The notes beneath the pieces are model-generated. The model was not told the DNA's origin. It made no database searches and saw only the letters and a list, made by a program, of their open reading frames with translations. DNA of 63,676 nucleotides, filler included, from Sphacelaria rigidula (taxonomy: Eukaryota), in assembly GCA_964200075.2 (NCBI GenBank). It is 4 parts of 4 records of this genome, joined end to end, with 100 filler letters (N's around TTAATTAATTAA, not from the genome) between each part and the next. Parts side by side here need not be neighbours in the genome. Positions count along the whole stretch, not along the records: positions 31,894 to 47,738 come from CAXNAA020001572.1; 3 more parts are not named here. The stretch is one strand, 5' to 3'. Made by a program: the position numbers and the translations under genes. This document shows positions 12,325 to 47,838 of this stretch, in pieces (positions within the stretch are counted from its first letter, which is position 1; the number at the start of each line of letters is the position of its first letter).

Positions 12325-12809
12325 ACACATTAGTCCGATCTCGCGAACCCGTGGTCACAGACGTAGGCTTGCCTTTCCAATACCATCCTTTCTATTCCTT
12401 ACCAGACACATTACCAACATGAAGAAAAAATAAGACGAGAGACGCCACGAAAACCGGTTAGAAGTAACTACGAAGTAAAATATTTCCAAAATGAAGATAA
12501 GAGAGACGCCAGGAGACGCCAAGAAGAACATGAGAAGTAGCTTCCCCTAGTTCAAAGGGGTGAAAGGAAAAAACGAACAAACGAACAAACTTCAGAGCTG
12601 CTAATAAAAGCACACCGACAGAAAAGGCAAACAAGAGAAAATACAAGAAAAGACAGATGACACAAGGTCATTAGCATGGCCACCGAGCGAGGAGCAATTC
12701 AAAATCAACCTCAGGCACCCTCATAGACAACCACCACAGCTGTTTGGAAAGATCGCGGATGTACTATAATAGTGAGTGTACTACTCGATGGACGACTGGT
12801 GGTTACTTT

Positions 12810-14365: not shown

Positions 14366-14476
<111 letters not shown>

Positions 14477-15847: not shown

Positions 15848-15947
15848 NNNNNNNNNNNNNNNNNNNNNNNNNNNNNNNNNNNNNNNNNNNNTTAATTAAT
15901 TAANNNNNNNNNNNNNNNNNNNNNNNNNNNNNNNNNNNNNNNNNNNN
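15848..15947. other. Artificial contig spacer (N-run with TTAATTAATTAA)
   Basis: 100-nt block whose central 12-mer has stops in all six frames. The same block recurs twice. Confidence 0.97.
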
Positions 15948-17101
15948 GCCCCCCCCCCCCCCCCCCCCCAATCGGCCCCAAATGGAAAAAAGTGAGTGTG
16001 GGTCCAGGGATATTTTTTCACCCGCCCTTGAACTCTACGGTGTGTTCTGGGTGAAGAAAATGTGTTCAAAATTTGCAGCTCGTGCTTGAACCATGCAGCC
16101 GCGCGGCCGAGAAAAGGTAGGTCTGTCCAAAAACGGCCATTTTTCGCTCGTTTTCCCAGGAAAGTACGATAGACCCGGGAACACGAAAAATCGCGAAAAA
16201 TGGTCCAAAAAAAGTGAAAATCGCGAAACCACTCTTGATTTTGAACATGTCCGTGGCATTAAGCTACGCACGCTCCATCCAACATTTGGTTAGCATGTAA
16301 TTGCTAGTGCTCGGCGTGAAAACGTCCAAAATCGGTCAATGGTGGGGGGAAAATGGATCAAAAAAGGTAAAAAAATGGGGTATATTACGACATAGTTTTA
16401 GTGATGAAAACAAGCTTTTTTCTCGTTTTTTTTTCATCAGCTTCGTCTGCGCTTTGCCTTTCCAACGAACCCAACCAAAGCATCGTCGCCACTACTGGCA
16501 TACCTGAACAATGTACCTTTACTTATGGGACAGAGGAAGTATATCCTACTTTGTACTGTACACTTAAATCCTTCTGATGGGCGTGCAATCTGTGAGCGTA
16601 CCTTTTCCCTGCGAAATCGTTTGAGCGTGAGTTCTTACCTCGCGTATCCATTACTCCCCATGTATCTACCGTTCGTTTTGTCCGAATTAACCATGGCGCG
16701 TGTGCGCAAGTGATGCCTCACCTGAGGCTGTTGACCGTCGATTCGCGCCCATGCCATCGGCACGCACAGTGGCGCGATAGCGTGCGCTTCCAGAAAATGG
16801 CGCTTGTTCGGTGTCGTCGCCGTGCTCTTACCATTGCCACAACGTTCACGAGCGATCAAGGTTCCTGCGCTACCGATATTCCCACGTGTCCCGTATCGCA
16901 TAGCACGGCGAACTGCCCTCCGGAAGTTTCTCTTATGACCCCGGCAGCGGTCGCCACAAGTCATACTCAATTAGCCGTTCTTTTGCACACACGACCACTC
17001 TCATTTCCAATGACACTTTGTTCGCCCGTCACTCCGTATGAACACTCATATATGTATTTTCTTCCCTACAATCATCCCCGCTCACATTTCATGTTACGTA
17101 G

Positions 17102-31109: not shown

Positions 31110-31793
31110 GTGTGATGGTTCACCACTGTGCGCTGATTGTGCTGCAGCTTCACTGAAGTCTTTGTACTGTATATATATTGCTGGGTAACACAATCGTGGA
31201 ACAAATGCAAATGCAACAAGAAGTAGGGTTGTTCGCGGGTTGGAATATCTAGAGCCCTCCCCCGTAGAGGAGGTATCAACGTTTGGGCATCCAATAATCG
31301 AAAACCGACGAAGTACTTTGGTATCTCGGTTGACGAGTGTTTCACGCATCCTTGCGTAGGACACGCGTCTTGTTCTTCTTTCAGTTGGTACGACTGGTTC
31401 GATTAAATGCCGACAAAACAAAATCATTGCCACATGAGCAACTCCAGCCGCCGTCATGATGCTTAGCCAGGCGCGCGACAGCTTGCGCTTATGGGTAACA
31501 GACCGACGGGGCTACCTGGCAATCTGCATCCAGTTCCGACGGTGCAGATTTTGAAGATGAACTAGCGTACTACGGCACTTACATCTTCATAAGCTTCGGG
31601 AGGTTGGGGTGTCAATGTGCGTGTCAGGGGTGATTTCCATCGACTGGTGCACCTCGAGATTCTGAAAAATAACTTCACGCACTCAAGGGCCGCAAATCGC
31701 TCTGGAAAACACCCCCCCCCCCCCACCCCCCCCACCCCCCCCCCCCCCCCCCCCCCCCCACCCCCCCCCCTCCCCTCCCCCCCTCCCCCCACC

Positions 31794-31893
31794 NNNNNNN
31801 NNNNNNNNNNNNNNNNNNNNNNNNNNNNNNNNNNNNNTTAATTAATTAANNNNNNNNNNNNNNNNNNNNNNNNNNNNNNNNNNNNNNNNNNNN
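31794..31893. other. Artificial contig spacer
   Basis: Same 100-nt N/TTAATTAATTAA block. Confidence 0.97.
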
Positions 31894-34674
31894 CGCTGAC
31901 GGCTTGCCTTACCCCTATTCTCAATCGTATCGAAGATTCTCAATCTCACGAAAACATTGTTCATTATGGAATGCGGTGTAACGAAATAATATATTGTTCT
32001 GCCAGCCATGTAATCAGATATTTCCATCCCCACTTGAGGCCCCCGGTGTAATCTTAGAGAACACCTAGCTTGAGATACCTCCAGTGATGAAGCGTCACGG
32101 TAAACAAAGTACCCGAGATGCATGTAGACTTATACCCGCATCTGCACATGGCGTCCAGTGGGGTGGGTGTCGATAATATGTACACGTGCCCATCATTCCC
32201 CACAAGTCCATGGCAGAAATGCATATCGGCGGGAACAGTGTTACCAGCGATGGATACGGATAGGGATTTTTTGAATTCCATATTATTGACTGGATATCGA
32301 CTCTAGCTCTTGTCTGCATTCTTCGGGTTTGCACATGTCGGACCCAGTCAGCAGTGCATTCCGACGCTTGATGCCTCATCCATCAGCACCACCCATTATG
32401 AAATGCCGTGAATACTGAAGAATATTTTGTTCTACCATCCTTGTAACCAGATATTTCCATCCCCACATGAGGCCGAGAAAACGTAGTTTGGATAAATGTA
32501 TATATATATACCATATAGCTCCACAAAAAAAAAAATGCCCTCACAACAACAAAAAACTCCCCGAGATGCAGACTCATATCTGCATCTGCACATGGGGAAC
32601 CGACAGGGTGGGTGCCGATAGTATACACATGTCCCTATCATCCCCCAGAGGTCCGTGGCCTTACATACGCAGGATCAACATGCAAGGCGTGTACCGGGGA
32701 GAGGTGGGCTAATCGCTCGAGACCGCGGACTGATCAAGCGGAAGAGGGGGGGGGTTGGAACTGGGACAAAATAGTGTGAAAGTGGGGTACAACACAAGGT
32801 GTGCTGATAACGTGGTAGCTCTTTAAACACAGGTTGCAATAAGTGATGCCCCTGCGACAAGTATACCTTCGATGGGGTAACACTGGATATCGACGAAGTC
32901 CCTTTGTTCTAGACGGACCGTTGTCCTCGGGAACGGCGATCAATGACTAACACATAATTCTGGTGCCTTGCCAATGCCATCAGTCACCATACGTCGATAT
33001 CAGTCCCAGTCCGCCTTGGTCATCATGAAAATAGACTATCGTGTCTGATTTTCTCGTATGTGGTCGTCTACCGCAGTGTGCATTGACGGAACCCTTTTAA
33101 ATTGTATTGGCATGGACCATGCATTTTGATGAAATAGTGCAAAATCCATCGCTACCGGCCATATCTATGGACATGTCAAACTCTTTTGTCCTCGGCCATG
33201 TATATCGATAGATCTCGATTCTATCAATACCAGAGCTATCGTTGCAGCAATTAACCATGGAAATATTCACGGGGACTGATGGGGATGCGAACCCCTCACG
33301 GAAATGTCTCGGCTCTTCCTGACAGTTTAAAACAAGTGACACACACTACCGCAGGCACACACACTGCCGCAGGCGCATTCCTCATGGCTGCACTGATGAT
33401 TGAGATGCCCACCCTGGGGGCGACTATAGACAAGGCCGAATTGAAACAGGGAGTACAACAACATGGTACAAAAACAGTACAAGTAGTACACTACAGTGCA
33501 CGAGCTGTGTGGTACAGTGCAACAGTGCATTCATGTCTCATTTCTCCCACCACCGCTTTCCTTCCCTTTTTCACTGGCGCTAAATGTGGTTGTATGGAGC
33601 CAAACAACAGGGTGAGCAGGATCTCTCTCTCTCCGTGCATTCCTACCTATTTCCCCCATTATCCGTGGGTAATACCGTGGAAAAAATCACAAACAATCTA
33701 GCTATGCACGTGAACCCTTGAGCCTCCACAGTGGGCAATCTGGGTACCGATCAGTTCGGTATTATCACCACACTACAGCTTCATGACGGCGCGAATATGA
33801 TGCACAGGCGAAAAGCCGCATGTGGCGGAAAAATGGACTTTACATAACGTGAAAACAGAAGAAAACGGGACGGTAATCATGGTGTAGTCTGTTCCGGTAC
33901 AGTCCCCAGAGCGTTTGAATACATACGCGACAGCATTTTCCCGTTCATATTCTCTCGGAATGCATCACACACGGACACATGACGCGACGAAAAACGTTAC
34001 TCCGGCTTGGACCTCTCCTCCCTTCTTGCTTCCCCCCTCCCGTTTACGTGCTGTATTTCATTTGCTCTTGTCGGGGACGATATGATGTTGAGGTGAGTCC
34101 ATCGATGAGTCGACTGGATCAGAGACAACCTAGTCGACCACGAGTGCGATTCAAGCGATTATATGTTGTGACCCCGCTTACCGGGGACATCCCACGTTCG
34201 GCACACCAGACGGCAATAAGTATTCTTGTAGATTTCAGGGGGAGTTGAAATAGTTGAGGAAAAACGTACTCATCTTGTAGTATATGTGTATGGCACCTGA
34301 ACACAAAGTTCGTTTCGCCGCACGATTTGCTCGTCTTGGTGATGTAGTGTTCAATCAAGTGTATCCACCTGAAACGGAGCGAACAACGAGGAGTCGTGTG
34401 TCCCCTTCCACGCGCGGGTGGCTCTCCAGTGACATTGGCGTAGTAAACGAACTCACGAGCGTCAGCTGCATGTACCAGAGATGATTGACCTCAGATTCCG
34501 TTCATTTCAAGGAGTGTCGTACCCAGGACATCACGCGGCGGCGCGGACTCCGCGACTTGGCCGGTGTATCTGTATGCGGCCTGTGCATCTTGGTAGGTTG
34601 GCCACGTCTTGTAGATCACTCGTAGCTAACGTGTCGTCTCTGCTCTGCTGGTCGCCTTTCCTCGACACCACAAG

Positions 34675-34746
34675 GATCCTGTCCGGGAACGATCTTACGA
34701 CCCTGCCGGTGGGGATCTTCGAGGGTCTCACGGCTCTGGAAACGCT
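34675..34746 (+). CDS. LRR exon 1: ILSGNDLTTLPVGIFEGLTALETL
   Basis: caag|72 nt|gtgagt, with CTAAC branch point upstream. Matches the 24-aa typical-class LRR consensus. Confidence 0.9.
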
Positions 34747-37700
34747 GTGAGTAGCAGTACAACACGCTTGTGGGTAGGTCGCGTTCCCGCATTGACTCAC
34801 CCTGCGCCAGGCAACAGAGTTCGTGAGGGTACTCTCGGTCTGCTGAGATATCGGTGCATTGCGCTCGATGTTGCGCTTCGGGTCAAAATCGTGACATCAG
34901 CAGTGGTTCAGCAGTGCTGGGCAGCGGATTACTATACACCAAGCGATACGACTAAAGAAGGCGGTAGGACCTGGTACTGTCATCTTGGCTCCATTGCTTC
35001 AATAGGCTGTAGAGGTGGTACGCAGTGGCACTCGCGAACCGATGGTCGTCAGATACCATCCTTGGACAGTCCTCGGGGCCATGAGGCCTTGATATGCTAC
35101 TTGTGGAACGCCAGGGACGGTTGCATTTTGTTTTGGAAGAAACCGCGTACCTTCGAGACCACCCCAAGGGTTCATTATTCGTCATGCCTCCCTCTCTCGT
35201 CTAGGCGTGGGGGCAACATCAACACTATCGAGGTGTATGTCGTGTAAAGTATGCCATTGTGTCTCAATACATGTTCAAAGGTGTGCGAGGTAGATGGAAA
35301 GATCAGGACGGGTACCCCAAACACCCGAGGTGTTTGGCTGTCGGGAACTGTTGGCCGAGGTGGCGTCGTCTTCGTATGTCGGGGTTCTTCTCCACCTTCG
35401 GGAACGCGCCCAAAAGTCGTTTTCCTCGTCACACGTTCCCTTGCACGCGCGGGTGGCTCTCCAGTGACATTGGCGTAGTATGGGAACTCACGAGCGTCAG
35501 CTGCATGTACTCGAGATGATTGACCTAAAAAAACGTTCATTTCCACGAGTGTCGTACCCAGGACATCACGCGGCGGCGCGGACTCCGCGACTTGGCCGGT
35601 GTATCCGCATGCGGCCTGTGCATCTTGGTAGGTTGGCCACGTCTCGTCGATCACTCCTATCTAACGTGTCGTCTCTGCTCTGCTCGTCGCTTCCCTCGAC
35701 ACCACGAGGTACTTGTCCGGGAACGATCTCACGACCCTTCCGGTGGGGATCTTCGAGGGTCTCACGGCTCTGGAAACGCTGTGAGTAGCAGTACGACACG
35801 CTCGTGGGTAGGTCGCGTTTCCGCATTAACCCCGCCCGCGCTGGGGAACAGAGTTCGTGAGAGTACTCTCGGTCTGCTGATATATTCGCGTACTCGCTGT
35901 CGCGTTTCAGGTCAATTTCGTGACATCAGCAGTGGTTCAGCAGTGCTGGGCAGCGGATCACCATACGCGAAGCGATACAAGTGTAGAAGTCGGTAGGGTT
36001 TGGTACTGTCATGTTGACGCCATTGCTTTAATGGGCTGTAGAGGTGGTACGCAGTGACACTCCCGAACCGATGGTCGTCAGATACCATCCTTGGACAGTC
36101 CTCGGGGCCATGAGACCCGTGTATGCTACTTGTGAAACGCCAGGGGTGGTTGCATTTCGTTCTCGAAAAAACCGCGTACCTTCGAGAACACCCCAAGGGT
36201 TCACTATTCGTCATGCCTTCCTCTCTCGTCTAGGCGTGGGGGCAACATCAACACTATCGAGGTGTCTGTCGTGTAAAGTATGCTATTATGTCTCAATACA
36301 TGGTCAAAGGTGTGCGAGGTAGATGGGAAGATCAGGACGGGTACCCCAAACACCCGAGGTGTTTTGCTGTCGGGAACTGTTGGCCGAGGTGGCGTCGTCT
36401 TCGTATGTGGGGGTTCTTTTCCACCTGGGAGAACGCGCCTAAAAGTCGTTTCTCTCGTCACATGTCTCCTTGCACCCGCGGGTGGCTCTCCAGTGACATT
36501 GGCGTAGTATGGGAACTCACGAGCGTCAGCTGTATGTACTAGAGATGATTGACCTCAAAATACGTTCATTTCCAGGAGTGTCGTACCCAGGACATCACGC
36601 GGCGGCGTGGACTCCGCGACTTCGCCGTTGTATCTGTATGCGGCCTGTGCATCTTGGTGGGTTGGCCACGTCTCGTAGATCACCCCCATCTAACGTGTCG
36701 TCTCCGCTCTGCTCGTCGCTTCCCTCGACACCTCAAGGTACCTGTCCGGGAACAATCTCACGACCCTTCCGGTGGGGATCTTCGAGGGTCTCACGGCTCT
36801 GGAACACCTGTGAGTAGCAGTACAACACGCTTGTGGGTAGGTCGCGTTTCCGCATTAAGCCCGCCCGCGCTGGGGAACAGAGTTCGTGAGAGTACTCTCG
36901 GTCTGCTGATATATTCGCGTACTCGCTGTCGCGTCTGGTCAATTTCGTGACATCAGCAGTGGTTCAGCAGTGCTGGGCAGTGGATCACCATACGCGAAGC
37001 GATACGACTGTAGGAGGCGATAGGACCTGGTACTGTCATGTTGGCCCCATTGCTCTAATGGGCTGTAGAGGTGGTACGCAGTGGCACTCGCGAACCGATG
37101 GTCGTCAGATACCATCCTTGGACAGTCCTCGTGGCCATGAGACCCGTGTATGCTACTTGTGATACGCCAGGGGCGGTTGCATTTTGTTCTCGAAAAACCG
37201 CGTACCTTCGAGACCACCCCAAGGGTTCATTATTCGTCATGCCTTCCTCTCTCGTCTAGGCGTGGGGGCAACATCAACACTATCGAGGTGTCTGTCGTGT
37301 AAAGTATGCCATATTGTTTCGTTACATGGTCAAAGGTGTGCGAGGTAGATGGGAAGATCAGCACGGGTACCCCAAACACCCGAGGTGTTCTGCTGTCGGG
37401 AACTGCTGGCCGAGGTGGCGTCGTGTTTGTTGTGGAGGTTCTTCTCCACCTGGGAGAACGCGCCTAAAAGTCGTTTTCCTCGTCACACGTTCCCTTGCAC
37501 GCGCGGGTGGCTCTCCAGTGACATTGGCGTAGTATGGGAACTCACGAGCGTCAGCTGTATGTACTAGAGGAGATAGTCCACAGATTCCGATTTTTTCCAC
37601 GAGTGTCGTACCCAGGACATCACGCGGCGGCGAGGACTCCGCGACTTCGCCGTTGTATCTGTATGCGGCCTGTGCATCTTGGTGGGTTGTCCACGCCGCG

Positions 37701-40700
37701 TAGATCACTCCTAGCTAACGTGTCGTCCCTGCTTTGCTCGTCGCCGTTTCGACACCACAAGGTACCTGTCCGGGAACAATCTCACCACCGTGCAGGTTAG
37801 GATCTTCGAGGGTCTCACGGCTCTGGAAACGCTGTGAGTAGCAGTACAACACGCCTGTGGGTAGGTCGCGGTTTCGCATTAAGCCCGCCCGTGCTAGGCA
37901 ACAGAGTTCGTGAGGGTACTCTCGGTCTGCTGAGATATCGGTGCATCGCACTCGCTGTCGCGTCTCGGGACAATATCGTGACATCAGCAGTGGTTCAGCA
38001 GTGCTGGGCAGCGGATCACCATACGCAAAGCGATACGACTGTAGAAGGCGATAGTACTTGGTACTGTCATGTTGGTCCCATTGCTTTAATGGGCTGTAGA
38101 GGTGGCACGCAGTGGCACTCGCGAACCGATGGTCGTCAGATACCATCCTTGGACAGTCCTCGGGGCCATGAGACCCGTTTAGACTACTTGTGGAACACGA
38201 CGGGCGGTTGCGTTTTGTTTTCGAAGAAACCGCGTACCTTCGAGAACACCCCAAGGGTTCACTATTCGTCATGCCTTCCTCTCTCGTCTAGGCGTGGGGG
38301 CAACATCAACACTATCGAGGTGTCTGTCGTGTAAAGTATGCCGAATTGTTTCGATACACGGTCCGAGGGGTGCGAGGTAGATTGAAAAATCAGCACGGGT
38401 ACCCCAAACACCCGAGGTGTTTTGCTGTCGGAAACTGTTGGCCGAGGTGGCGTCGTGTTTGTGGTGGACGTTCTTCTCCACCTTTGAGAACGCGCCTAAC
38501 AGTCGTTTTTCTCGTCACATGTCCCCTTGCACCCGCGGGTGGCTCTCCAGTGACATTGGCGTAGTATGGGAACTCACGAGCGTCAGCTGTATGTACTAAA
38601 GATGATTGACCACAGATTCCGTTTTTTTTCAGGTGTGTCGTACCCAGGATATCGCGCGGCGGCGCGGACTCCGCGACTTCGCCGGTGTAGCTGTATGCGG
38701 CCTGTGCATCTTGGTGGGTTGACCACGCCTCGTAGATCACTCCCAGCTAACGTGTCGTCTCTGCTCTGCTCGTCGCCTTCCCTCGACACCACAAGGTCCT
38801 TGTCCTACAACGAACTCACGACCCTGCCGGTGGGGATCTTCGAGGGTCTCACGGCTCTGGAACACCTGTGAGTAGCAGTACAACATGCTTGTGGGTAGGT
38901 CGCATTTCCGCATTGATTCGGCCCGCTCTAGGCAACAGAGTTCGTGAGGGTACTCTCGGTCTGCTGAGATATCGGTGCATCGCACTCGATGTTGCGTCTC
39001 TGGACAATATCGTGACATCAGCAGTGGTTCAGCAGTGCTGGGCAGTGGATCACCATACGCGAAGCGATACGACTATAGAAGGCGGCAGGACCTGGTACTG
39101 TCATGTTGACGCCATTGCTCTAATGGGCTGTAGAGGCGGTACGCAGTGACACTCCCGAACCGATGGTCGTCAGATACCATCCTTGGACAGTCCTCGGGGC
39201 CATGAGGCCTTGATATGCTACTTGTGAAACGCAAGGGCGGTTGCATTTTGTTCTCGAAGAAACCGCGTACCTTCGAGACCACCCCAAGGGTTCACTATTC
39301 GTCATGCCTTCCTCTCTCGTCTAGGCGTGGGGGCAACATCAACACTATCGAGGTGTCTGTCGTGTAAAGTATGCCATTGTGTCCCGAAACATGGTCAAAG
39401 GTGTGCGAGGTAGATGGGAAGATCAGGACGGGTACTCCAAACACCCGAGGTGTTTTGCTGTCGGGAACTGCTGACCGAGGTGATGTCGTGTTTGTTGTGG
39501 AGGTTCTTCTCCACCTTCGAGAACGCGCCGAGATGTCATTCACCTAGTCACATGTTCCCTTGCACGCGCGGGTGGCTCTCCAGTGACATTGGCGTTGCAT
39601 GGGAACTCACGAGCGTCAGCTGTATGCACTAAAGATGATAGTCCACAGATTCCGTTGTTTTCCAGGAATGTCGTACCCAGGACATCACGCGGCGGCGAGG
39701 ACTCCGCGACTTAGCCGATGTATCCGTATGCCGCCTGTGCATCTTGGTAGGTTGGCCACGTCTCGTAGATCACTCCTAGCTAACGTGTCGTCTCCGCTTT
39801 GCTCGTCGCCTTCCCTCGACGCCACAAGGTCCTTGTCCTACAACGAACTCACGACCCTGCCGGTGGGGATCTTCGAGGGTCTCACGGCTCTGGAACACCT
39901 GTGAGTAGCAGTACGACACGCTTGTGGGTAGGTCGCGTTTCCGCGGTAACCCCGCCCGCGCAGGGAACAGAGATCGTGAGGGTACTCTCGGTCTGCTGAG
40001 ATATCGGTGCCTATCGTGTAAAGGATGTGATTGTGGCCCGATACACGGTCGAAGGTGTGCGAGGTAAATTGAAAAATCAGCACGGGTACCTCAAACACCG
40101 GAGGTGTTTTGCTGTCGGGAACTGTTGGCCGAGGTGGCGTCGTGATTGTTGTGGACGTTCTTCTCCACCTTCGAGAACGCGCCGAAAAGTCGTTTCTCTC
40201 GTCACATGTTCCCTCGCACGCGCGGGTGGCTCTCCAGTGACACTGGCGTAGTATGGGAACTCACGAGCGTCAGCTGTATGTACTAGAGATGATTGACCAC
40301 AGATTCCGTTTGTTTCCAGGAGCGTCAAGAGTTCATTATCCGTCATGCCTTCCTCTCTCGTCTAGGCGTGGGGGCAACATCAACACTACCGAGGTGTCTG
40401 TTGTGTAAAGTATGCTATTATGTCTCGATACGTGGTCCGAGGTGTGCGAGGAAAATTGGAAGATCAGGACGGGTACCCCAAACACCCGAGGTGTTTTGCT
40501 GTCGATAACTGTTGGCCGAGGTGGCGTCGTCTTCGTATGTGGAGGTTCTTCTCCACCTGGGAGAACGCGCCGAGATGTCGTTTTTCTCGTCACATGTCCC
40601 CTTTCACGCGCGGGTGGCTCTCCAGTGACATTGGCGTAGTGTGGCAACTCACGAGCGTCAGCTGTATGTACTAGGGATGATTGACCACAGATTCCGTTGA

Positions 40701-43700
40701 TTTCAAGGAGTGTCGTACTCAGGACATATATGCGTAGACTTCGCGACTTGGCCGGTGTATCCGGATGCGGCCTGTGCATCTTGGTGGGTTGGCCACGCCT
40801 CGTAGACCACTTCCAGCTAACGTGTCGTCTCTGTTCTCTCGTCGCCTTCCCTCGACACCTCAAGGTACCTGTTCGAGAACAATCTCACGACCCTGCCGGT
40901 GGGGATCTTCGAGGGTCTCACGGCTCTGGAATGGCTGTGAGTAGCAGTACAACACCCTTGTGGGTAGGTCGCGTTTCCGCAGTGACTCGGCCCGCGTTAG
41001 GGAACAGAGTTCGTGAGGGTACTCTCGGTCTGCTGAGATATCGGTGCATAGCACTCGCCTAGTGTCTCGGGACAAATTCGTGACATCAGCAGTGGTTCAG
41101 CAGTGCTGGGCAGTGGATCACCATACGCGAAGCGATACGGCTGTAGGAGGCGGTAGGGCTTGGTACTGTCATGTTGACGCCATTGCTCTTATGGGATGTA
41201 GAGGTGGTACGCAGTGGCACTCGCGAACCGATGGTCGTGGGATACCATCCTTGGACAGTTCTCGGGGCCATGAGACCCGTGTATGCTACTTGTGATACGC
41301 CAGGGGCGGTTGCATTTTGTTCTCGAAGAAACCGCGTACCTTCGAGACCACCCCAAGGGTTCACTATTCGTCATGCCTTCCTCTCTCGTCTAGGCGTGGG
41401 GGCAACATCAACACTATCGATGTGTCTGTCGTGTAAAGTATGTGATTGTGTCCCGAAACATGGTCAAAGGTGTGCGAGGTAGATTAAGATCAAGACGGGT
41501 ACCCCAAACACCCGAGGTGTTGTGCTGTCGGGAACTGTTGGCCGAGGTGGCGTCGTCTTCGTATGTGAAGGTTCTTCTCGACCTCCGAGAACGCCCCGGG
41601 ATGAAGTGCTCCTTGTACGTACTGAAGTTGATCCACAACAGTCCGTTGATTTGAAGGAAAATGTACTGAGGTGATCAGGCGGCGACGCAGATCTCTCAAC
41701 TTGGTCGGTTTTTGGAATGCGGCCTGTGCATGGTGGGTTGGCCACGCCTTACAGGTCACCCCTAGCTCACATATCGTCTCTGCTCCGCACGTTGGCTTGC
41801 CTCGACCCTCTAAGGAGCTTTTCTTGGAACTTGAGTATCACGCCTCCAGGGATGTTCGAAGGTGTTTGGTTCTGCGAGTTATCGGCTCATAGACGCTGTG
41901 AACGACTTGGCGCAATCGCGGTGCCCCTGTATTCAGGTCTAACCGGCGTCAAGCTCTGTAAATCCTGGTACATATCGGGAACAATCGCGTTCGAATAACT
42001 GTTGCTACTTTTAATGAGGATTTCTAGTACAACGTGTGTTTCAAAACGACGCGGATGTGTTCGTGTAGCTACACTGAGGGGTCCGCGACCATGAGATTTG
42101 CTCGTGATATGGGTTCCATATAGGGATACCAGAAGCGTCAACACAACTGAGCAAAGTTTGAAATTGAAGGTGCAGAAGCCGGCCGCCCCGGTGGCTCAGG
42201 TAGCATCCGCGAAAATCTTTTGACGGTTGGCACTGAAGTGTGAATTTCATGAAACAAAACGCCCCATAATCCCCGCCTCCGCTATCGTAGAATTTTTCTA
42301 TCTCACCATCCTACCGGTTGGGATCTTCGATGGTCTCACGGCTCTAAAAATCCTGTGATCAGCAGCAAGACACTTTTGTGGTTAAGATGCTTTCCTGCAT
42401 TGGCTCAGCCTGCGGTAAAAATCTGAATCCATGGGAATATTATTGATCTGCTCATGTCGGTGCATTGGATCTGGTGCAATTTGCGAGAGTCCATGTTGAT
42501 ATCGACTAGGTGGTACAGGAATGCTGGGGAGTGTACCACTACGTTAGAAGCGCAGTTGTATTAGTCGGTAGGTCTTGTTGCTGTCCTATTCTCCCCATTG
42601 CTCTTGAATGCGGTGTGTAGTACACGTGCAACGGGTAAGTGATGCAATTCGAATGCTCTATGGTTCTGAGAATGATTGAACGGCGGTTCCGTTGACTGAG
42701 AATGGTCACCCTACCCAAAGTTCAACAAGTAGTTCGAGTCGGACACAGAATACTCACCGTGTAGAGCAAAACCACATCGCAGTATGTTGTCGTCGTCAAA
42801 GCTTATTCCCGCCCGCCAGGTAGCTAGAAGTTTAAAAAGAGGACGCTGCTCTCAATATCGTTGTATCATCCTCGTCGTTGCTTACAATGCAAATAGTTTG
42901 GGATTACGCGAGGCGTCTTTTCCACGGCATCAGATCACACCCATACGTGCCCCGTTCTTGCCGTTTTTACGCTGGCGAACTTCTCCCGGGGTCTGACGTA
43001 TAGGTGGCTCGATGGGAACTCACTGGAGTGTATGCCCGCCATCCCAACAACGTGAGCAACGCAAAATGATGGTCGATCTGTCGTCTCGAAATATTTTGTG
43101 TAACAAGTGGAAAATTTTGCACGTGTTTGGGAATCGGTGCAGCGCCACATATTCAGGTAGTCAATTATCGTGCCGAATACGGTTCGCTGACGCTCGCGAT
43201 ATCGAACGAATGCGATGTCCAGCAGCATTGCTTCTCGAAATGTTGGCCCAAATGTGACTTGCCGATCAAGGAAAGTTTCGACCTGCTTTTGAGCTCTCAC
43301 GTTGGCCATAACGTCGGGACTCACGATGAATTTATCCCTAGCATGCGTGAGCCCGTAGCAGAACAAGGAATGCACTTTATCTTCGATTGAATCTCGCCGT
43401 GTGCACAACAAAGGCCGGCTTTTTTCGGCATACTGTTTGCTTTGTGCCTTGCCCATTTTTCATCAATGCACTGCATTGTCGATCGGACACCACCTTTTCC
43501 TCAGACTGTACTGCTACTACTGCTTACTTCCGGTGACACACTTCGCAGGATGGACGCCAACGGGCTCGAAGTTGATGCGTACGGCGACGAATGTGGTGAG
43601 TGATTCTTGAGAAGGTGTACGGATGAACCTAAGCCTAACCCTTGAGCTCCGTAAGGACTCATCGGTATTGGGTTGCTTCCCCCGCAATCTGCCCACGCAG

Positions 43701-45079
43701 GTATCGAGTCGAATATGTCGCTCTTTCGATAAAGGTGTCAACTTGCAGTCTGTATCGGATTTCGATCTGCGCTCCATTCCCCGAATGGCGTCACGCCGCG
43801 CCTCTTTCGTGGTGAGCGGTGCACTGGTCCAGCGAAACGTTGCACGGCGGTACCCCTTATCCAGATAGTATCAATCATTTGCTCCCGCGTGCATTTTCAG
43901 GTCGCTCGGAAGGGCGGTCAGCTGTACCACGCCTCAAACATACACGTGTTACTGGTCGAAACGGTCCACCATGGATCTCGAGATTGATTCAGTTGCTTCA
44001 TGTAATCCGATAATGTGAAAGAGCCTGCAGCGCGGGATGAGTCCTACGGTGGTTGTTCCGTACTACCCACGGCTCTGTACCGTGTATGAAAAGCTTATAT
44101 AAAAAGCTCTCCAAAAGTCCGGTTCGCGCACGTCATAATCGGGCCAAAAGTGTATGTAGGCATGCTTTATTTGAGCGAGATGTGCTGGTACTGTTCTTCC
44201 CAGGCAACGCTAGTGTTCGTCCCTACACCGAGTAATAAAATGCATGTTACAATTCCAAGCGATGCCCTCACCGAGTAATAACATGCATGCTTCGAACGCT
44301 TCCAGGGTGTTCTGTTCCGGACGTGACCGATAACGTGTGCGGCCAAAAAACGTGCACTTCCGGACCCGAAGGATACACCTGTGGTGAGACAACGGCCCTG
44401 ACTGCGTCAAATATGATGATTCGGATTGACCCCCCTCCATCAGGGGCTTCAGTATTGGGTGAACTGACACTGTTCGATACTCGAAGTTTCACAGCTGACA
44501 CAAGTTGCCGCTCCTTGACATTTTTGGACGTAGTCGCAGCTCTCGACTTCCTTGTGCCCTCGGACGCGAGCTGCCACGAGTGTTGTTTTATTGTTCGAGT
44601 TGTGAGCCACTGATGCCGCTGTTTTGATGGCTTGTGAAAGCGGCGTGATCTGCATAAAGCACATGCACCGCGGTGTTGTAGACGGAGACAGCTAATTTCG
44701 ATAGTGTCCCGTACGTGCTAACCGTTTGGTTCCATACCCAGACGGATGTTGTTTACAAAGACGGCCTCGAGCAGGAGGGCTTCAGAAGTCTCATTTGTTT
44801 TGCCCACTCCTTCGGTGCACCCCTCCGAGCCACCGAACGAGGTGGTTCATCGCCTTTATTGCGTTGGTGTCCAGCTCATCTGGCTGGGGTTGGGTAAAGC
44901 ATAAGTTGACTTGGAAATGACCCGCGAAAACCCGCCGACCTGGTAACTCGCTGCATCGGCCACACTTGCGCCTGTGCCAGCACCCACGCCCACCGTTGAA
45001 GCGGAAGAGCCTGCATCGGCCTCCTCAGCACCCGAATCCGCGCCAGAACCTGCGCTGTCACCCAACTCAAGCGCAGAAG
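34675..45079 (+). CDS. Leucine-rich-repeat receptor-like protein, partial: 7 LRR exons, linker exon, Cys-rich exon, Pro/Ser/Ala stalk exon
   Basis: Phase-2 LRR exons splice in frame to 43549-43595 (phase 2 to 1), 44306-44383 (1 to 1) and 44981-45079 (1 to 1). The N-terminus and the region past the 45165-45174 gap are unresolved. Confidence 0.75.
35709..35780 (+). CDS. LRR exon 2: YLSGNDLTTLPVGIFEGLTALETL
   Basis: cgag|72 nt|gtgagt. Confidence 0.88.
36738..36809 (+). CDS. LRR exon 3: YLSGNNLTTLPVGIFEGLTALEHL
   Basis: caag|72 nt|gtgagt. Confidence 0.9.
37762..37833 (+). CDS. LRR exon 4: YLSGNNLTTVQVRIFEGLTALETL
   Basis: caag|72 nt|gtgagt. LPVG is changed to VQVR. Confidence 0.85.
38796..38867 (+). 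CDS. LRR exon 5: SLSYNELTTLPVGIFEGLTALEHL
   Basis: caag|72 nt|gtgagt. Confidence 0.9.
39829..39900 (+). CDS. LRR exon 6: SLSYNELTTLPVGIFEGLTALEHL (nucleotide-identical to exon 5)
   Basis: caag|72 nt|gtgagt. Confidence 0.9.
40865..40936 (+). CDS. LRR exon 7: YLFENNLTTLPVGIFEGLTALEWL
   Basis: caag|72 nt|gtgagt. Confidence 0.9.
41815..41865 (+). pseudogene. Decayed LRR exon (SFSWNLSITPPGMFEG), 3'-truncated
   Basis: Follows a diverged copy of the intron unit and taag acceptor. The 3' half and the gtgagt donor are lost. Confidence 0.65.
42179..42248 (+). mobile_element. Truncated head of the tRNA-derived SINE
   Basis: CCGGCCGCCCCGGTGGCTCAGG...TGACGGTTGG matches the start of the 3191 copy. Confidence 0.6.
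42301..42354 (+). pseudogene. Decayed LRR exon (LTILPVGIFDGLTALKIL), 5'-truncated
   Basis: LRR 3' part followed by gtgatc and a diverged intron-unit start. The nearest AG would give an out-of-frame 64-nt exon. Confidence 0.7.
43549..43595 (+). CDS. Linker exon of the LRR gene (MDANGLEVDAYGDEC)
   Basis: cgcag|47 nt|gtgagt, converting phase 2 to phase 1 as the model requires. Confidence 0.7.
44306..44383 (+). CDS. Cys-rich cap-like exon (GCSVPDVTDNVCGQKTCTSGPEGYTC)
   Basis: tccag|78 nt|gtgaga, phase 1-1. Confidence 0.75.
44981..45079 (+). CDS. Pro/Ser/Ala/Glu-rich stalk exon (APTPTVEAEEPASASSAPESAPEPALSPNSSAE)
   Basis: gccag|99 nt|gtaagc, phase 1-1. Confidence 0.7.
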
Positions 45080-45115
45080 GTAAGCGTGCTGACGTGCCGC
45101 TTTCGGTGTTGAGGT

Positions 45116-45146
<31 letters not shown>

Positions 45147-47468
45147 TACCCCCGCCCACCACCANNNNNNNNNNAAAGTGAACGGTGCGGACGGGCCCTT
45201 TTGGTGTTGGGGTTCCCCCCCCCCCCCCCCCCCGGAGAAATGCTCCGTCTCGAAACGGATGCGTGGTCAATGGTCAAACGACCAAGGCAAGCATTCAAAG
45301 AGTACGCTCTCATCTCCCCACCCCCGTAAAAACCACAGCGTCGAGAAGATCCCCGGGTTTTGTCCAAAACTGAATGGTCAGACCGCGGCCAATATTTCCC
45401 TGCACTGGGTGTACTCACGGTTATGCATGCCATAGTCATCAGGCGCACTCAAACTATAGCCCTGCTGGCAATTTTACAAACAAAAACTAGCAACAAGCAA
45501 GACATCTTCGCTGAAAAAGCCATGGTCTAAGTATTTGTAGGAGCAAGCATTCAAGGGGGAAATGTATAGGGGGAAGCAACTAGACCCCGCGTGTAGATGC
45601 TGAACACTAACCCTAACACTTGAACCAAGTACGACAAGAGATGGCGTGGTATATGCTTGAACCAAGTACGAACTATATCGGCACGTATCCTTTAAACTTG
45701 CATTTACGGTGAGGCATACCATTTTGTGTGAGTACGTAGCTGCATAACTGTATATACGCTATCATCACGCCCAGCCCTTTAAATCTCGTCGCCGCCATGT
45801 AAACAATGTCTAGCGGTGGTACCACGAAATGTACCGTCAAGTTTGATCCTTGTGCGCTGCAATGCGTGGGAAGACCGCGTGCTTAAAGGACCGTATCGTA
45901 GTTCAAAACACCCTAGGATCGATGTCTTTCAAACCCAATCGAGTCAGTCCCTACAGGAACTACGCCCCTGACCCCAACCCCAATACTAAAGCTAACGATA
46001 GGGGCGTTCAAACTCTGATGCGGTCCCCTAAGCACACGGTCCTCCCACGCATTACGTGCTCTCTACTGAGAGGATAACCGTAGTTGCCATCGATATACGC
46101 CTGTGCTCCCTCATATTGGTGTCCGTGCGTAAGGACGTCGTTCTCTCGCATGCGGGAGGCGAAACGAAGTTTTTTTCGCCTGACGCGCAATTCCAGGCTT
46201 CACATCTGATCGTTTCACCCGGTCAGGATACTGTCTCGGATATGTATAAATAAACCCAAGCGTACGCATGTTATCTCATACGCCTTATAAGGCTGAGAAG
46301 GGATTCAGGGCGAGGGAGCAGTGCTTGTAGGGCCTACTGGCGAAGCGATGCGACACCTTCTCTCGAGCCCGTGAGTAATCATTCAGCACCCATACAGCTA
46401 CACTGTTCATCATGTCCGTACCTGCAGCGACCCGAACATTGACAAATGCTTGTGTATCAATTGCCAGACCCTACTCTGGTTGTAGAATCAGCAGCGATAC
46501 GGCGTACGCGCGTGAACTCCGTAGCGAAGACTTCGCTTACTGTAGTGGGTGACTGAAATAGGAGTTTACACGCCACCATCCTTTGGAGTGAACTTATACC
46601 CGCAGCTCTTCTGTGAAACAGCAGCGAAGGCTTCTTTGCTTACTCACACCCCATTTTCCCACCATTACTGCTGCTACTCGTGGGCAGCAGCGCTTCCAGT
46701 AATGAGCTAGAAGTGTCTACTCCTTTCGCCGCAATATGTCGTGGTAACTGCACAGCTGCGCTTCTCTTATCCGCATTCTACTCGTGCAGTTGCAGCAGCT
46801 GCCGCGACGGTAAATCCGACGAATGTTCCCTCTTTCGCGAAGGCATCATACCGCCAACAACGAAGTCATCGCGACCGGCGTCCAACGACGACCCGAGCAC
46901 AGACGGGGAGCTAGACGTGGGCGACATGTTGGAGCGTATGAGAAAGTGCCTGCCGCACGACAGGACGTCTTTGATCCGTGTTGGCCCTTTAAGGAACTCG
47001 TGGCGCGGCATCGAGCCGTTCTCGTCGCACACAAGGCACCGTCCGCATGGGATATGAGAAATTGTAGTGCGAGTGTGGATGTTAGTACGTTCGTCAATTG
47101 ACATCCACTTCCCTTGCATAGCTATGGGAGGGGTGTATTGGATGAGCATTCATCAGTCCAGATGGATTTTATAAAAATCGAAAGTAGTTGAGGGAATGGC
47201 GGTTGACAGCCAGCGACCTATAATCTCGGCCACCGAGGAGAACCCGCCGGGGCCGGCAGCCAATTACTCGCGTGTATTTCTCCGTCTTGCATTATGCTTT
47301 GCTGGAGAATGTACTTGTAGTGCAGCCCCGTGATCACGTTGATATATCATTGATCAAGCGGGTCGATTTATGGAGTCAATTCCCGACATTAATGTTGGTG
47401 TAGTCATTGGTTTCCATATTCTTACTTTGTGAGCGCGCAGACAAGGCGAAAAGGGCTCGAAATACATG

Positions 47469-47566
47469 AGTGGTCAGTACACCACATTGTAGTTCGATTC
47501 TCGGATTGGTCAGTACACCACATTGTGGCTGTGGAAACCCTAGTTCGATTCTCGGATTGGTCACCA
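47469..47566 (+). pseudogene. tRNA-His(GTG)-derived head-to-tail dimer, 5'-truncated, with encoded CCA
   Basis: Anticodon arm CCACA-TTGTGGC-TGTGG, T arm CCTAG-TTCGATT-CTCGG and 3' ATTGGTCA-CCA. The 5' acceptor strand is missing. The upstream copy lacks 15 nt. Confidence 0.8.
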
Positions 47567-47738
47567 TGTAGTGGTCTAGCCACGAGGTGATATTGGTGTC
47601 ACTCTCAAGGATCATACCAGGCCAGCGGTGACACGAGGTCAGCGGCTGGCCGCAATGAACGATCGCAGTAAAGACGAGCGACCCTCGAACTCGTGACTAA
47701 CAGACCTTCGAGCCCGACCAGCACTGCATCGTAAGGCC

Positions 47739-47838
47739 NNNNNNNNNNNNNNNNNNNNNNNNNNNNNNNNNNNNNNNNNNNNTTAATTAATTAANNNNNN
47801 NNNNNNNNNNNNNNNNNNNNNNNNNNNNNNNNNNNNNN
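47739..47838. other. Artificial contig spacer
   Basis: Same 100-nt N/TTAATTAATTAA block. Confidence 0.97.

Follow-up and report, generated by a model that had tools for sequence, protein, structure and literature searches.

A tandem array of one-repeat LRR exons in a receptor-candidate gene of the brown alga Sphacelaria rigidula

Organization of the locus

The window, the whole stretch of 63,676 nucleotides analysed here (assembly GCA_964200075.2), consists of four pieces of approximately 15.8 kb separated by spacers of the form N44-TTAATTAATTAA-N44, and only positions 31894-47738 (15.8 kb) provide genomic context for the LRR gene. A scan of the plus strand of this piece for AG + 72 nt + GT, with the frame open at offset 1, returned 36 candidates, seven of which are LRR exons (Table 1). 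An eighth match to a loose pattern, at 32984, is not an LRR and was rejected.

All seven exons share the acceptor ...caag/G (or cgag/G) and the donor CT/GTGAGTAGC, where the slash marks the splice site. Each is made of one base, 23 codons and two bases, and is thus in phase 2 at both ends, with the split codon CT/G at the junctions encoding Leu. Single exons are recognized by Pfam LRR_8 in four of four cases submitted (15-18 bits each; 15.5 bits for U1), and a profile built from the 13 repeats of a Cladosiphon protein described below, applied to the locally spliced model, detects seven repeats (25-47 bits). The units recur at intervals of 1024-1037 bp, start to start, and are now ~87-93% identical. 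When the unit at 36405-37440 was compared with the whole window by BLAST, five further full-length copies (89-93% identity) were recovered along with an internally rearranged copy (unit 6, 39496-40547) and decayed pieces at 41614-41815 and 42300-42616; no copies were found outside 34399-42616. These results confirm the observation, made in an earlier note on this DNA, of seven 24-residue LRR exons in ~1.03-kb units followed by an in-frame tail. That note had also called all seven exons intact. The frame of U4 is indeed open and its splice sites are good, yet its sequence is TTVQVRIF where TTLPVGIF is expected; against the Cladosiphon profile it scores only 25 bits, whereas the other six exons score 44-47 bits. 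Given its three framework replacements (L10V, P11Q and G13R), U4 may be decaying.

Downstream of the array, and before the tail exons, are two decayed cassettes that were missing from the earlier note. The one at 42291-42354 lacks an in-phase acceptor that would give a 72-nt exon. Together the two cassettes would add 111 nt and preserve the frame.

Table 1. Features of the LRR gene and its surroundings, in window coordinates
Feature	Positions	Strand	Basis
Speculative start exon, ATGATGTTGAG/GTGAGT	34082..34092	+	ATG, phase 2, consensus donor
Tandem array, seven exon-plus-intron units of ~1.03 kb	34399..41573	+	spacing, BLAST
LRR exon U1, 72 nt, phase 2/2, ILSGNDLTTLPVGIFEGLTALET + split Leu	34675..34746	+	exon scan; Pfam LRR_8
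LRR exon U2	35709..35780	+	exon scan
LRR exon U3	36738..36809	+	exon scan
LRR exon U4, open, splice sites intact	37762..37833	+	exon scan
LRR exon U5	38796..38867	+	exon scan; LRR_8 18 bits
LRR exon U6	39829..39900	+	exon scan
LRR exon U7	40865..40936	+	exon scan; Pfam
Decayed cassette, SFSWNLSITPPGMFE, acceptor retained, only donor weak GTGTTT	41815..41861	+	BLAST, exon phasing
Decayed cassette, ...LTILPVGIFDGLTALKI, 64 nt	42291..42354	+	BLAST, exon phasing
Half-repeat exon, 48 nt, start of cap, WLDGNSLECMPAIPT, phase 2/2	43004..43051	+	frame; Cladosiphon homology
Cap exon, 47 nt, MDANGLEVDAYGDEC, phase 2 to 1	43549..43595	+	frame; Cladosiphon alignment; donor used in X6
Intron, GT..AG ends, 710 nt	43596..44305	+	spliced out in one X6 contig
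Cys-rich cap exon, 78 nt, CSVPDVTDNVCGQKTCTSGPEGYTC, phase 1/1	44306..44383	+	frame; X6 joint; Cladosiphon homology
Predicted Pro/Ser/Ala/Glu-rich linker exon, 99 nt, phase 1/1	44981..45079	+	splice sites, open frame only
Assembly gap, 10 N, poly-C either side	45165..45174	.	hides sequence beyond linker exon

Four tail exons continue the frame of the array whether the decayed cassettes are included or left out, which bears out the earlier description of linker, Cys-rich and Pro/Ser/Ala exons. The half-repeat and Cys-rich cap exons are 62% and 57% identical to residues 784-799 and 814-841, respectively, of the Cladosiphon protein (tblastn). The Cys-rich exon belongs to no Pfam family, and the cap as a whole matches none, LRRCT included, with its best PDB match reaching only E 0.48. 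For the linker exon we found no counterpart in the Cladosiphon protein, no RNA coverage and no Pfam family, and the assembly gap lies a short way 3' of it.

Of the segments in the 2.8 kb of upstream sequence, the speculative start exon is the only one that opens with ATG, is in phase 2 and has a consensus donor; it has neither RNA nor homology support, and a product initiated there would lack a signal peptide. The same 2.8 kb yielded no exon for a signal peptide, an LRRNT or any other N-terminal part, and the 2.6 kb downstream yielded no TM or GPI segment and no additional domain, so that the search for signal-peptide and TM or GPI exons suggested in the earlier note came up empty within the 15.8-kb piece. 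The gene may be whole or just the 3' two-thirds of one.

A homologue in Cladosiphon okamuranus

One named homologue is g15705.t1 of the brown alga Cladosiphon okamuranus (EukProt; P0085), a protein of 841 aa whose 13 repeats belong to the LRR subtype seen here (NxLTTLPxGxFEGLTxL); individual repeats reach 85-90% identity to those in the window over 20 residues. In both, a terminal half-repeat is followed by a six-Cys cap: the C-terminus of the Cladosiphon protein is identical to the three cap exons at 31 of 59 columns, with all six Cys aligned, and it alone carries the cap motif among the 164 proteins fetched. The two differ in that the 13 Cladosiphon repeats are diverged, whereas the window repeats are far more alike, and in that only the window has a Pro/Ser/Ala-rich exon after the cap, which is the end of the Cladosiphon protein. 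The latter also begins with a segment that, judged by eye, resembles a signal peptide, within ~470 N-terminal residues that include two Cys-rich repeats and Pro/Thr linkers; the protein has no kinase. This 470-residue part has no match anywhere in the window (tblastn). The Sphacelaria product is plausibly extracellular, since the only named eukaryotic homologue sharing the cap starts in this manner and has modules rich in Cys and in Pro/Thr.

Transcript and read evidence

Contigs from four sequencing runs were compared with positions 40640-45164. Runs X1, X2 and X4 are DNA, and X6 is probably an RNA run, although its RNA nature is a guess. One X6 contig (89 nt, depth 2.4) joins 43595 to 44306 and thereby skips 710 nt; no contig of X1, X2 or X4 has this joint, and both borders are covered collinearly in those runs. 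The spliced contig may stem from an allele or paralogue, given that it differs from the window at three of 61 nt. A second X6 contig (40923-41073) crosses the U7 donor unspliced, and no LRR exon-to-exon joints were seen within the region compared. The LRR gene is real and at least partly spliced, with at least one tail intron removed; the earlier note had raised the prospect that spliced transcripts would be lacking altogether. X1 and X2 contigs match the window without differences over 41538-44980, and a loose end in X1 at 40877 represents an additional cassette variant, located elsewhere in the genome or on the other allele.

Selection and gene conversion

We compared codons pairwise among 15 unit pairs, leaving out unit 4, and treated 18 framework codons separately from five variable codons. 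The framework has dN = 0 in all 15 pairs with dS ~0.10, close to the upstream intron K of ~0.13. A dN of zero alongside a normal dS indicates that the LRR exons behave as coding sequence under protein-level constraint up to the present. By comparison, mean dN in the five variable codons is ~1.05 with dS 0.13. In the introns of five cleanly aligned units, 190 of 905 columns vary, versus three of 57 framework columns (Fisher p = 0.002) and 11 of 15 columns in the five codons (Fisher p = 2.5e-5).

Apart from those in U4, all amino-acid changes are confined to five positions of the concave face (LRR x3, x5, x7, x8 and x10), which are also the most variable positions in the 13 Cladosiphon repeats. 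Positions judged exposed a priori are variable in five of six cases versus none of the 18 others (p = 1.4e-4, U4 left out), or three of 18 when U4 is included (p = 0.007). If the exon is left unpartitioned, dN (0.14), dS (0.14) and intron K (0.13) are about equal; the signal is visible only after a partition that is partly post hoc, yet agrees with structural expectation. The rate of change at the five concave-face residues exceeds that at synonymous or intron sites many times over, and this restriction of repeat variation to the ligand face supports the earlier reading of a diversifying recognition receptor.

The U5 and U6 exons are identical at 72 of 72 nt while their upstream introns differ (K = 0.13). 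The identical tract spans 93 nt, from -7 to +85 relative to the exon start, and shows that one of these exons was copied over its neighbour by conversion.

Nature of the gene

We lean towards an ordinary brown-algal germline gene, present whole or as its 3' two-thirds, that encodes a ligand-binding LRR protein with one LRR per 72-nt exon. A 1.03-kb exon-plus-intron unit was amplified in tandem to seven copies, and unequal crossing-over, short-tract conversion and possibly exon skipping could change repeat number and content without a frameshift. Given the signal-peptide-like N-terminus of the homologue and the Pro/Ser/Ala-rich linker, the product would be secreted or held at the cell surface. 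It is probably extracellular, and might bind a variable ligand derived from pathogens or cell walls. Its diversity would arise in the germline over generations rather than somatically.

A truncated or decaying LRR-only locus, a reservoir or pseudogene that lacks secretory N-terminal exons and supplies cassettes to other LRR genes, would account for the missing signal-peptide exon and N-terminal homology, for the replacements in U4 and the two decayed cassettes, and for the further cassette variant at the X1 loose end. In the sections of PMC11378527 and PMC3341825 that treat them, most non-ROCO loci with shuffling LRR exons are LRR-only and may likewise be reservoirs. We nevertheless consider this unlikely: the framework is constrained in all 15 pairs, the frame is maintained across the four tail exons, one tail intron is spliced, and N-terminal exons could lie beyond the piece, since it holds only 2.8 kb of upstream sequence. 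We give less credence still to the possibility that the array is the ectodomain of an LRR receptor kinase whose TM and kinase exons lie beyond the gap or the end of the piece. It was in seven Ectocarpus LRR-kinases that exons of this register were first reported (PMC3341825, in its account of type II exons), brown-algal membrane receptor kinases with LRR ectodomains are reported in the relevant parts of bioRxiv 10.1101/2024.02.19.579948 and PMC8307928, and a TM exon could well be placed where the linker meets the gap. However, there is no Pkinase match and no TM-like segment in any frame of 45175-47738, nor any kinase elsewhere in the 15.8-kb piece, the sole cap-sharing homologue ends at its cap without a kinase, and the type II kinase loci, as presented in PMC3341825, lack recent exon duplication.

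Two further readings strike us as very improbable. LRR-ROCO genes are the best-known brown-algal genes with recombining arrays of 72-nt phase-2 LRR exons (PMC3341825; PMC11378527, in their treatment of these arrays), and the array might belong to one whose ROC-COR exons lie outside the piece. The register here is nonetheless type II rather than the ROCO type I (GxxPxxLxxxxxLxxLxLxxNxLx), two types that PMC3341825, where it defines them, holds not to be mixable in one domain; the repeats are followed by a Cys cap and Pro/Ser/Ala-rich linker instead of a linker-ROC arrangement; and no Ras/ROC or COR match occurs among the 128 + 146 ORFs scanned. Somatic assembly or exchange of cassettes to produce clonally diverse receptors, as in a VLR-like system, has in its favour the architecture only (symmetrical cassettes, cap and stalk-like exon) and the exon-scale U5/U6 conversion tract, a tract that on the present data is germline. 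Against it, every cassette has the same orientation within an ordinary intron-exon gene whose splice sites fit the consensus, contigs of X1 and X2 are the same as the window over more than three kilobases, and neither a deaminase nor any other such machinery is seen. No result here points to lamprey-style somatic assembly.

Comparison with known systems

In lampreys and hagfish, VLRs use the 24-residue 'typical' LRR class with variation concentrated on concave beta-strand positions, have, after a C-terminal cap that contains Cys, a stretch rich in Pro, Ser and Thr, and derive from an incomplete germline gene with flanking cassettes. The convergence on VLR architecture proposed earlier holds for the one-repeat symmetrical exons, concave-face variation, Cys-rich cap and Pro/Ser/Ala-rich exon, but not for LRRNT, a signal peptide, TM or GPI, none of which was found in the 15.8-kb piece. 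Nor does it extend to sequence, in that the cap is not recognized as LRRCT and the Cladosiphon homologue, when compared with solved LRR structures, matches VLRA (E 6e-37) far less well than IGFALS (1e-65), LRRTM, LRRC15 and LRRC32. The VLR analogy is superficial.

Among the best 150 of 3796 matches to a 30-residue query, giant LRR surface proteins of marine bacteria predominate (for example P0001 and P0017, the latter named 'fibronectin type III domain-containing protein, Candidatus Palauibacter sp.'). Their NxLTTLPxGxFDGLTALxxL repeats are 50-67% identical to those in the window. Unlike the window, they are prokaryotic and free of introns, and have a CDRTPxVRDAI-type N-cap and FN3 or Calx-beta modules; among the 164 proteins fetched, 13 have an NPFNP-type sorting tail and none of the bacterial proteins has the six-Cys cap.

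Brown-algal LRR-ROCO genes, as characterized in the relevant parts of PMC3341825 and PMC11378527, resemble the array in that each 72-nt phase-2 exon encodes one LRR, exons are duplicated in tandem and recombine, and the concave face is under diversifying selection; alternative splicing of their LRR exons is also reported. They differ in their type I boundaries, plant-type GxIP repeats, ROC-COR output and cytoplasmic location, whereas the array has a Cys cap and linker and no ROC-COR within 15.8 kb. This last result agrees with the earlier proposal of a separate family, but the register had already been published, in what PMC3341825 says of it, as the Ectocarpus 'type II LRR exon' (xLxxNxLxxxxxGxxxxxxxLxxL, 72 nt; seven LRR-kinases and eight other loci; Zambounis et al. 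2012). Length, boundaries and L/N/L/L/L positions match in seven of seven exons here, and the Gly at position 13 in six of seven, with Arg in unit 4. Sites 3 and 23, given there as positively selected, belong to the five variable sites of the array. The passages on type II exons in PMC3341825 report no duplication, inactivation or reshuffling, whereas this array is a young tandem amplification in which one conversion on the scale of an exon has occurred and two or three cassettes are decaying. Phase-2 LRR exons of 72 nt are on record in both sources (PMC3341825; PMC11378527, in the parts concerned). The one-LRR-per-exon gene design is thus already described in brown algae, and this locus is a further receptor-candidate gene of that kind.

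A tandem array of single-repeat LRR exons

The third of the four pieces (31894-47738) was scanned for 72-nt stretches between AG and GT that are open in frame offset 1, and seven of the 36 candidates returned are LRR exons (U1-U7), carried by tandem units spaced 1024-1037 bp apart. Each of these exons consists of one base, 23 codons and two further bases, which places phase 2 introns on both sides. The acceptor is pyrimidine-rich in 7/7 exons and ends (c/t)(a/g)ag before the exonic G, the donor reads CT followed by GTGAGTAGC, and the codon split between CT and G encodes Leu. The earlier note had described seven intact 72-nt exons of one repeat each, followed in frame by tail exons. The scan recovers this arrangement with two amendments, namely that U4 reads VQVR where the other exons have LPVG, and that two decayed cassettes lie between array and tail. 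The tail keeps the reading frame of the array both with these cassettes and without them, and its last predicted exon is rich in Pro/Ser/Ala/Glu and is followed by an assembly gap.

Positions of the exons, sequence breaks and other features of the locus and its surroundings
Feature	Position	Remarks
Spacers between pieces	15848-15947, 31794-31893, 47739-47838	N44-TTAATTAATTAA-N44
Long poly-C	31712-31790	beside a spacer
Long poly-C	45117-45157	beside the 10-N gap
10-N gap	45165-45174	piece three, poly-C on flanks
ATG-initiated segment	34082-34092	ATGATGTTGAG followed by GTGAGT; phase 2
LRR exon U1	34675 (start)	72-nt AG..GT scan
LRR exon U2	35709 (start)	72-nt AG..GT scan
LRR exon U3	36738 (start)	72-nt AG..GT scan
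LRR exon U4	37762 (start)	72-nt AG..GT scan; aberrant copy
LRR exon U5	38796 (start)	72-nt AG..GT scan
LRR exon U6	39829 (start)	72-nt AG..GT scan
LRR exon U7	40865 (start)	72-nt AG..GT scan
Decayed cassette	41815-41861	between array and tail
Decayed cassette	42291-42354	between array and tail
First tail exon	43004-43051
Second tail exon	43549-43595
Third tail exon	44306-44383
Fourth tail exon	44981-45079	predicted
Intron block	36477-36505	29 nt
Intron block	37246-37282	37 nt

When one unit was compared with the whole window by BLAST, five further full-length copies (89-93% identity), one rearranged copy (39496-40547) and two old remnants of about 70-77% identity (41614-41815 and 42300-42616) were found, with no match outside 34399-42616. 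Likewise, a pattern scan of all six frames of the window revealed no LRR exon beyond the array. The rearranged copy, unit 6, retains its first 510 nt, after which come three short pieces of unit ends (40006-40159, 40150-40326 and 40326-40547), and looks like the outcome of a local intronic deletion and duplication.

Single exons were submitted to Pfam, and 4/4 match LRR_8 at 14.9-18 bits, which is below the 27-bit cut-off, as expected given that one exon amounts to one third of the 61-position model. The Cladosiphon okamuranus homologue g15705.t1 (P0085) reaches 264 bits with the same family, and a profile made from its 13 repeats gives the seven repeats of a locally spliced window model 25-47 bits each. 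Judged by their fit to the LxxLxLxxNxL core and to the LRR_8 profile, the repeats can be assigned to the 24-residue 'typical' LRR class.

Two intron blocks are invariant across all seven units, being as conserved as the exon core at 36776-36804; the invariant 29-nt exon core itself had 0 matches among JGI metagenome contigs. For the shorter intron block (29 nt), a pairing with 42990-43050 is computed at -36.5 kcal/mol. This value is reached by 6/150 shuffled blocks and was the best of six block-by-flank tests, and a Dscam-like docking/selector pairing was therefore dropped as not significant. Inverted repeats inside one unit are limited to a single weak pair. Long minus-strand ORFs within the units were also set aside, as they are not kept across units and belong to no Pfam family. 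A non-repetitive open frame of 174 codons, beginning MGKAQSK, lies on the minus strand at 42938-43459, antisense to the first cap exon and its intron, and has no Pfam or PDB match.

Selection and conversion among the units

Taken as wholes, the exons are no more conserved than the introns, with mean pairwise dN and dS both 0.14 and an upstream intron K of 0.13. Because the array is so young, seven open copies alone are no proof of function. The changes are distributed very unevenly, however, when the codons are considered separately. With unit 4 left out, 18 framework codons have dN = 0 in 15/15 pairs and a dS of about 0.10, near the intron rate, and the five codons at exon positions 1, 3, 4, 6 and 23 have a mean dN of about 1.05 against a dS of 0.13. 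These five are wholly replaced between units, as in GGG/TAC/GAG or ACG/CAC/TGG. Across the five cleanly aligned units, 190/905 intron columns vary, compared with 3/57 framework columns, all three of them synonymous (Fisher p = 0.002), and with 11/15 columns in the five codons (p = 2.5e-5).

Exon positions 1, 3, 4, 6 and 23 correspond to x5, x7, x8, x10 and x3 of the LxxLxLxxNxL strand. In LRR proteins, x3, x5, x7, x8 and x10 form the solvent-exposed concave face. The same mapping has been given for brown-algal LRRs (PMC3341825, PMC11378527). Among positions designated as exposed a priori, 5/6 vary versus 0/18 of the others when unit 4 is omitted (p = 1.4e-4), and 5/6 versus 3/18 when it is included (p = 0.007). 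The exposed positions are also the most variable ones among the 13 repeats of the Cladosiphon protein. We read this pattern as purifying selection on the LRR fold combined with diversifying selection on the binding face, under a codon partition that is partly post hoc. Given that the distribution of changes is decisive, the array exons are read as real coding exons.

Between exons U5 and U6, a tract of 93 nt (-7 to +85) shows no difference at all. Their upstream introns differ at K = 0.13, and other pairs of units have closer introns. Identity of the exons despite diverged introns points to the copying of one cassette over another in a short tract.

Splicing and run evidence

A run search returned eight sequencing runs. 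Much of the stretch is present in X1-X4, which come from one study and are of uncertain kind, and a small share in X5, labelled 'algae metagenome'. No run listed for the stretch is marked as RNA. X6-X8 are only guessed to be RNA; X7 and X8 contain almost no words of the stretch. Contigs of X6 and of the DNA runs X1, X2 and X4 were compared over 40640-45164. One X6 contig (89 nt, depth 2.4) joins 43595 to 44306 and skips 710 nt with GT..AG ends; the skipped segment coincides exactly with the intron expected between tail exons two and three. No such joint occurs in the X1, X2 and X4 contigs, which run collinear across both borders. Splicing of one tail intron is observed here in a single contig of depth 2.4, from a run only guessed to be RNA. 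The contig has three mismatches in 61 nt, one of them also present in X1, and may therefore come from a different allele or from a paralogue. The U7 donor is read through unspliced in a second X6 contig (40923-41073).

At the U7 exon, contig depths add up to about 15x the local baseline, and a loose end of X1 at 40877 carries a different cassette start (D-L-E-G before Asn). Together these show that cassette-like copies beyond those in the window exist, elsewhere in the genome or on another allele. The X1 and X2 contigs break at 43215-43302, where depth rises, so that part of the 174-codon minus-strand frame is repeated in the genome. Contigs of X1, X2 and X4 share a loose end before 42030, with 102-255 letters unlike the window, and other contigs back the window's arrangement at this point. 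The loose end looks like the edge of a dispersed repeat in the intron region between the decayed cassettes.

Relatives and the cysteine-rich cap

When a 30-residue stretch (34658-34747) was compared with 1.84 billion representatives in a full HMMER search, 3796 matches were obtained at E up to 1e-3, the best 150 of which are mostly 1000-7000 residues long with 10-60 repeats. The ten clusters examined comprise eight without a name, a Candidatus Palauibacter protein named for fibronectin type III and the Cladosiphon protein (EukProt, 841 aa), the only named eukaryotic relative among the ten. The other inspected relatives look bacterial, with CDRTPxVRDAI-type N-caps, and NPFNP-type tails are present in 13/164 fetched proteins. 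In this search the NxLTTLPxGxF(E/D)GLTALxxL subtype is most abundant in giant proteins resembling marine bacterial surface proteins (P0015-P0163), and a single named brown-algal protein is found among the best 150 of the 3796 matches. A word-based protein search with the exon-bearing ORF gave no candidate at the 'near' setting; at the 'longer' setting, among 22 candidates, it gave only P0001 and P0002, which are bacterial-looking metagenome proteins.

The Cladosiphon protein begins with what resembles, by eye, a signal peptide (MPLALLLLLALCG...), continues through some 470 residues that include two Cys-rich repeats as well as Pro/Thr linkers, and then carries 13 repeats of the motif NxLTTLPxGxFEGLTxL. 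Its C-terminus aligns locally with the three cap exons of the window gene at 31/59 identical columns and with six Cys in register, and tblastn of the cap pieces gives 62% and 57% identity. Both proteins share the cap motif, in which a half-repeat LxLxGNxLECxPA is followed by GDECGCS...CG...C...GYTC; among the 164 fetched proteins, the six-Cys cap is present in the Cladosiphon protein alone. Pfam recognises only LRR families in that protein. The cap exon and the 58-residue Cladosiphon cap have no Pfam match, to LRRCT or any other family, at E up to 10, and the best PDB hit of the cap (E 0.48) falls on the half-repeat only.

Ends of the gene and composition of the window

The spacers recur once every ~15.95 kb, and the four pieces of about 15.8 kb each have GC fractions of 0.46, 0.54, 0.53 and 0.49. 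Given these recurring spacers, the window is four separate pieces rather than one contiguous locus, and the adjoining pieces cannot serve as gene context. The positions of the long poly-C tracts indicate that the assembly probably breaks at such homopolymers.

Pfam detected no kinase, ROC, COR, NB-ARC or other convincing domain in 128 ORFs of at least 110 aa from the whole window, nor any of these in the flanks (31894-34700 and 42300-47738), where the two strands supplied 146 ORFs of 35 aa or more. Only the 15.8-kb piece bears on this gene, and short exons could be missed by such scans. The three plus-strand frames of 45175-47738 contain no convincing transmembrane (TM) segment, the sole 19-residue window above 1.8 carrying Asp and Arg, and no hydrophobic tail suited to a GPI or TM anchor occurs before the end of the piece. 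TM or kinase exons may lie past the 10-N gap or the piece end.

Upstream of the array, only one ATG-initiated phase-2 segment has a consensus donor (34082-34092), and translation from this start would enter the first repeat at once, so that the product would lack a signal peptide. No ATG exon of hydrophobic character ends at a consensus phase-2 donor in 31894-34674, residues 1-470 of the Cladosiphon protein find nothing better than E 0.38 in the window by tblastn, and neither the upstream scan nor tblastn of the window with this protein revealed an LRRNT-like exon. Exons for a signal peptide and for the Cys-rich and Pro/Thr parts may lie beyond the piece. The gene may thus have its 5' end and its true 3' end outside this piece of DNA.

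Neither Rfam at gathering threshold nor a tRNA scan detected anything in the window. In the first piece, the long 'ORFs' at 11620-12354 and 14278-14976 are microsatellites rather than genes, in which trinucleotide runs are read as poly-Ile/Asn and a (TG)n run as CVCV. Three tandem paralogous sets of long plus-strand ORFs (255-360 aa) are located at 16596-18596, 20051-21743 and 27860-31153. These have repeated RRPSLGGG(M/L/A)P(A/P)WAPK and GGLDWL(T)QAA motifs, a conserved end (KLPPWAKPWTPPP) and no Pfam family. Their 12 relatives are all Logan or ENA records, the best at 98% identity and the others at 30-39%.

Interpretation and comparison with known systems

Unequal crossing-over between the 1.03-kb units, along with short conversions, would insert, delete or swap repeats in the germline while keeping the frame, and exon skipping could have the same effect on the RNA, as reported for ROCO genes. 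The predicted product would be a curved LRR solenoid closed by the cap, with a Pro/Ser/Ala-rich linker tethering it to whatever follows the gap. This solenoid would probably lie outside the cell and bind a fast-changing ligand. The earlier note had likewise placed the receptor probably outside the cell and proposed a search for signal peptide and TM/GPI exons, which yielded none in the third piece. On the strength of the Cladosiphon homology and the Pro/Ser/Ala-rich exon, rather than of the locus itself, the product is probably, though not demonstrably, extracellular. We consider it quite improbable that the array is a diversity generator for an extracellular brown-algal receptor in the full sense, with cassette number and content differing among individuals through unequal crossing-over and exon-scale conversion, with transcripts using differing subsets of the seven symmetrical exons, as reported for ROCO genes, so that one locus yields many binding surfaces, and with a repeat module that may share ancestry with giant marine bacterial LRR surface proteins, its nearest relatives among the 1.84 billion proteins searched. 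To our knowledge, NLR- or TLR-type receptors are absent from brown algae. If the full-length product proves extracellular, the gene would represent a candidate family for cell-surface or apoplastic recognition in brown-algal immunity or cell-wall sensing, and its seven cassettes would offer a compact locus for direct tests of alternative exon use and of polymorphism in copy number.

From Ectocarpus, Zambounis et al. (PMC3341825) describe LRR exons of 72 nt and 24 residues in two kinds. Type I exons (GxxPxxLxxxxxLxxLxLxxNxLx) undergo intense shuffling and are found in ROCO genes, in some kinases and at 46 further loci. Type II exons (xLxxNxLxxxxxGxxxxxxxLxxL) occur in seven LRR-kinases and eight further loci; according to the authors they show 'no tangible sign' of shuffling, and sites 3 and 23 of the exon are under positive selection. 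The window exons have the offset of type II, with 72 nt, L2, N5, L7, L21 and L24 in 7/7 and G13 in 6/7 (Arg in U4), and sites 3 and 23 are both among the five variable sites of the array. Teng et al. (PMC11378527) confirm 72-bp phase-2 LRR exons in four brown algae, and state that the tandem LRR exons of Ectocarpus ROCO genes are alternatively spliced and that non-ROCO loci with shuffling LRR exons mostly contain LRR motifs alone.

An LRR-ROCO gene would be expected to show the type I register, which is not matched here, and no ROC or COR domain is found downstream of the repeats in the 15.8-kb piece; the distinction from ROCO genes drawn in the earlier note stands. Brown-algal receptor kinases with LRR ectodomains have been published (bioRxiv 10.1101/2024.02.19.579948; PMC8307928), whereas the window gene has neither a Pkinase match nor a convincing TM segment in piece three (45175-47738). 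The VLR architecture that had been proposed fares less well. No LRRNT-like exon is present among those found, and the cap is unlike LRRCT by Pfam and PDB sequence search. The VLR germline is an incomplete gene that is finished by copying in flanking cassettes somatically, whereas the window has the layout of a normal exon array in one orientation. The repeat is of the 'typical' kind, as the earlier note had it, but the solved LRRs nearest to the Cladosiphon protein by sequence are IGFALS (1e-65), LRRTM, LRRC15, a Leptospira LRR protein and LRRC32, with VLRA at 6e-37, and the repeat is thus of the general 'typical' class rather than specifically VLR-like. The resemblance is an analogy of parts and not of mechanism, and nothing supports somatic, VLR-type assembly. 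In listings and abstracts that cover part of the literature, no paper deals with this family of caps or with anything VLR-like in algae.

The gene fits best among the brown-algal receptor-candidate genes already known to have one LRR per exon, with the type II register and a lineage-specific cap. The separate family that the earlier note proposed is not supported, given that the one-LRR-per-exon design, including the non-plant-type register, is already in print (PMC3341825). The locus shows tandem amplification, conversion, a fixed framework and fast change of the ligand face in a register reported as static in Ectocarpus, and so exhibits the same mode in the other register without opening a new kind of mechanism. 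What appears to be new is a type II array that is still being amplified in tandem and shows conversion at exon scale, a very clean separation of a frozen framework from a hypervariable face, and a link to a cap-bearing, apparently secreted Cladosiphon family.
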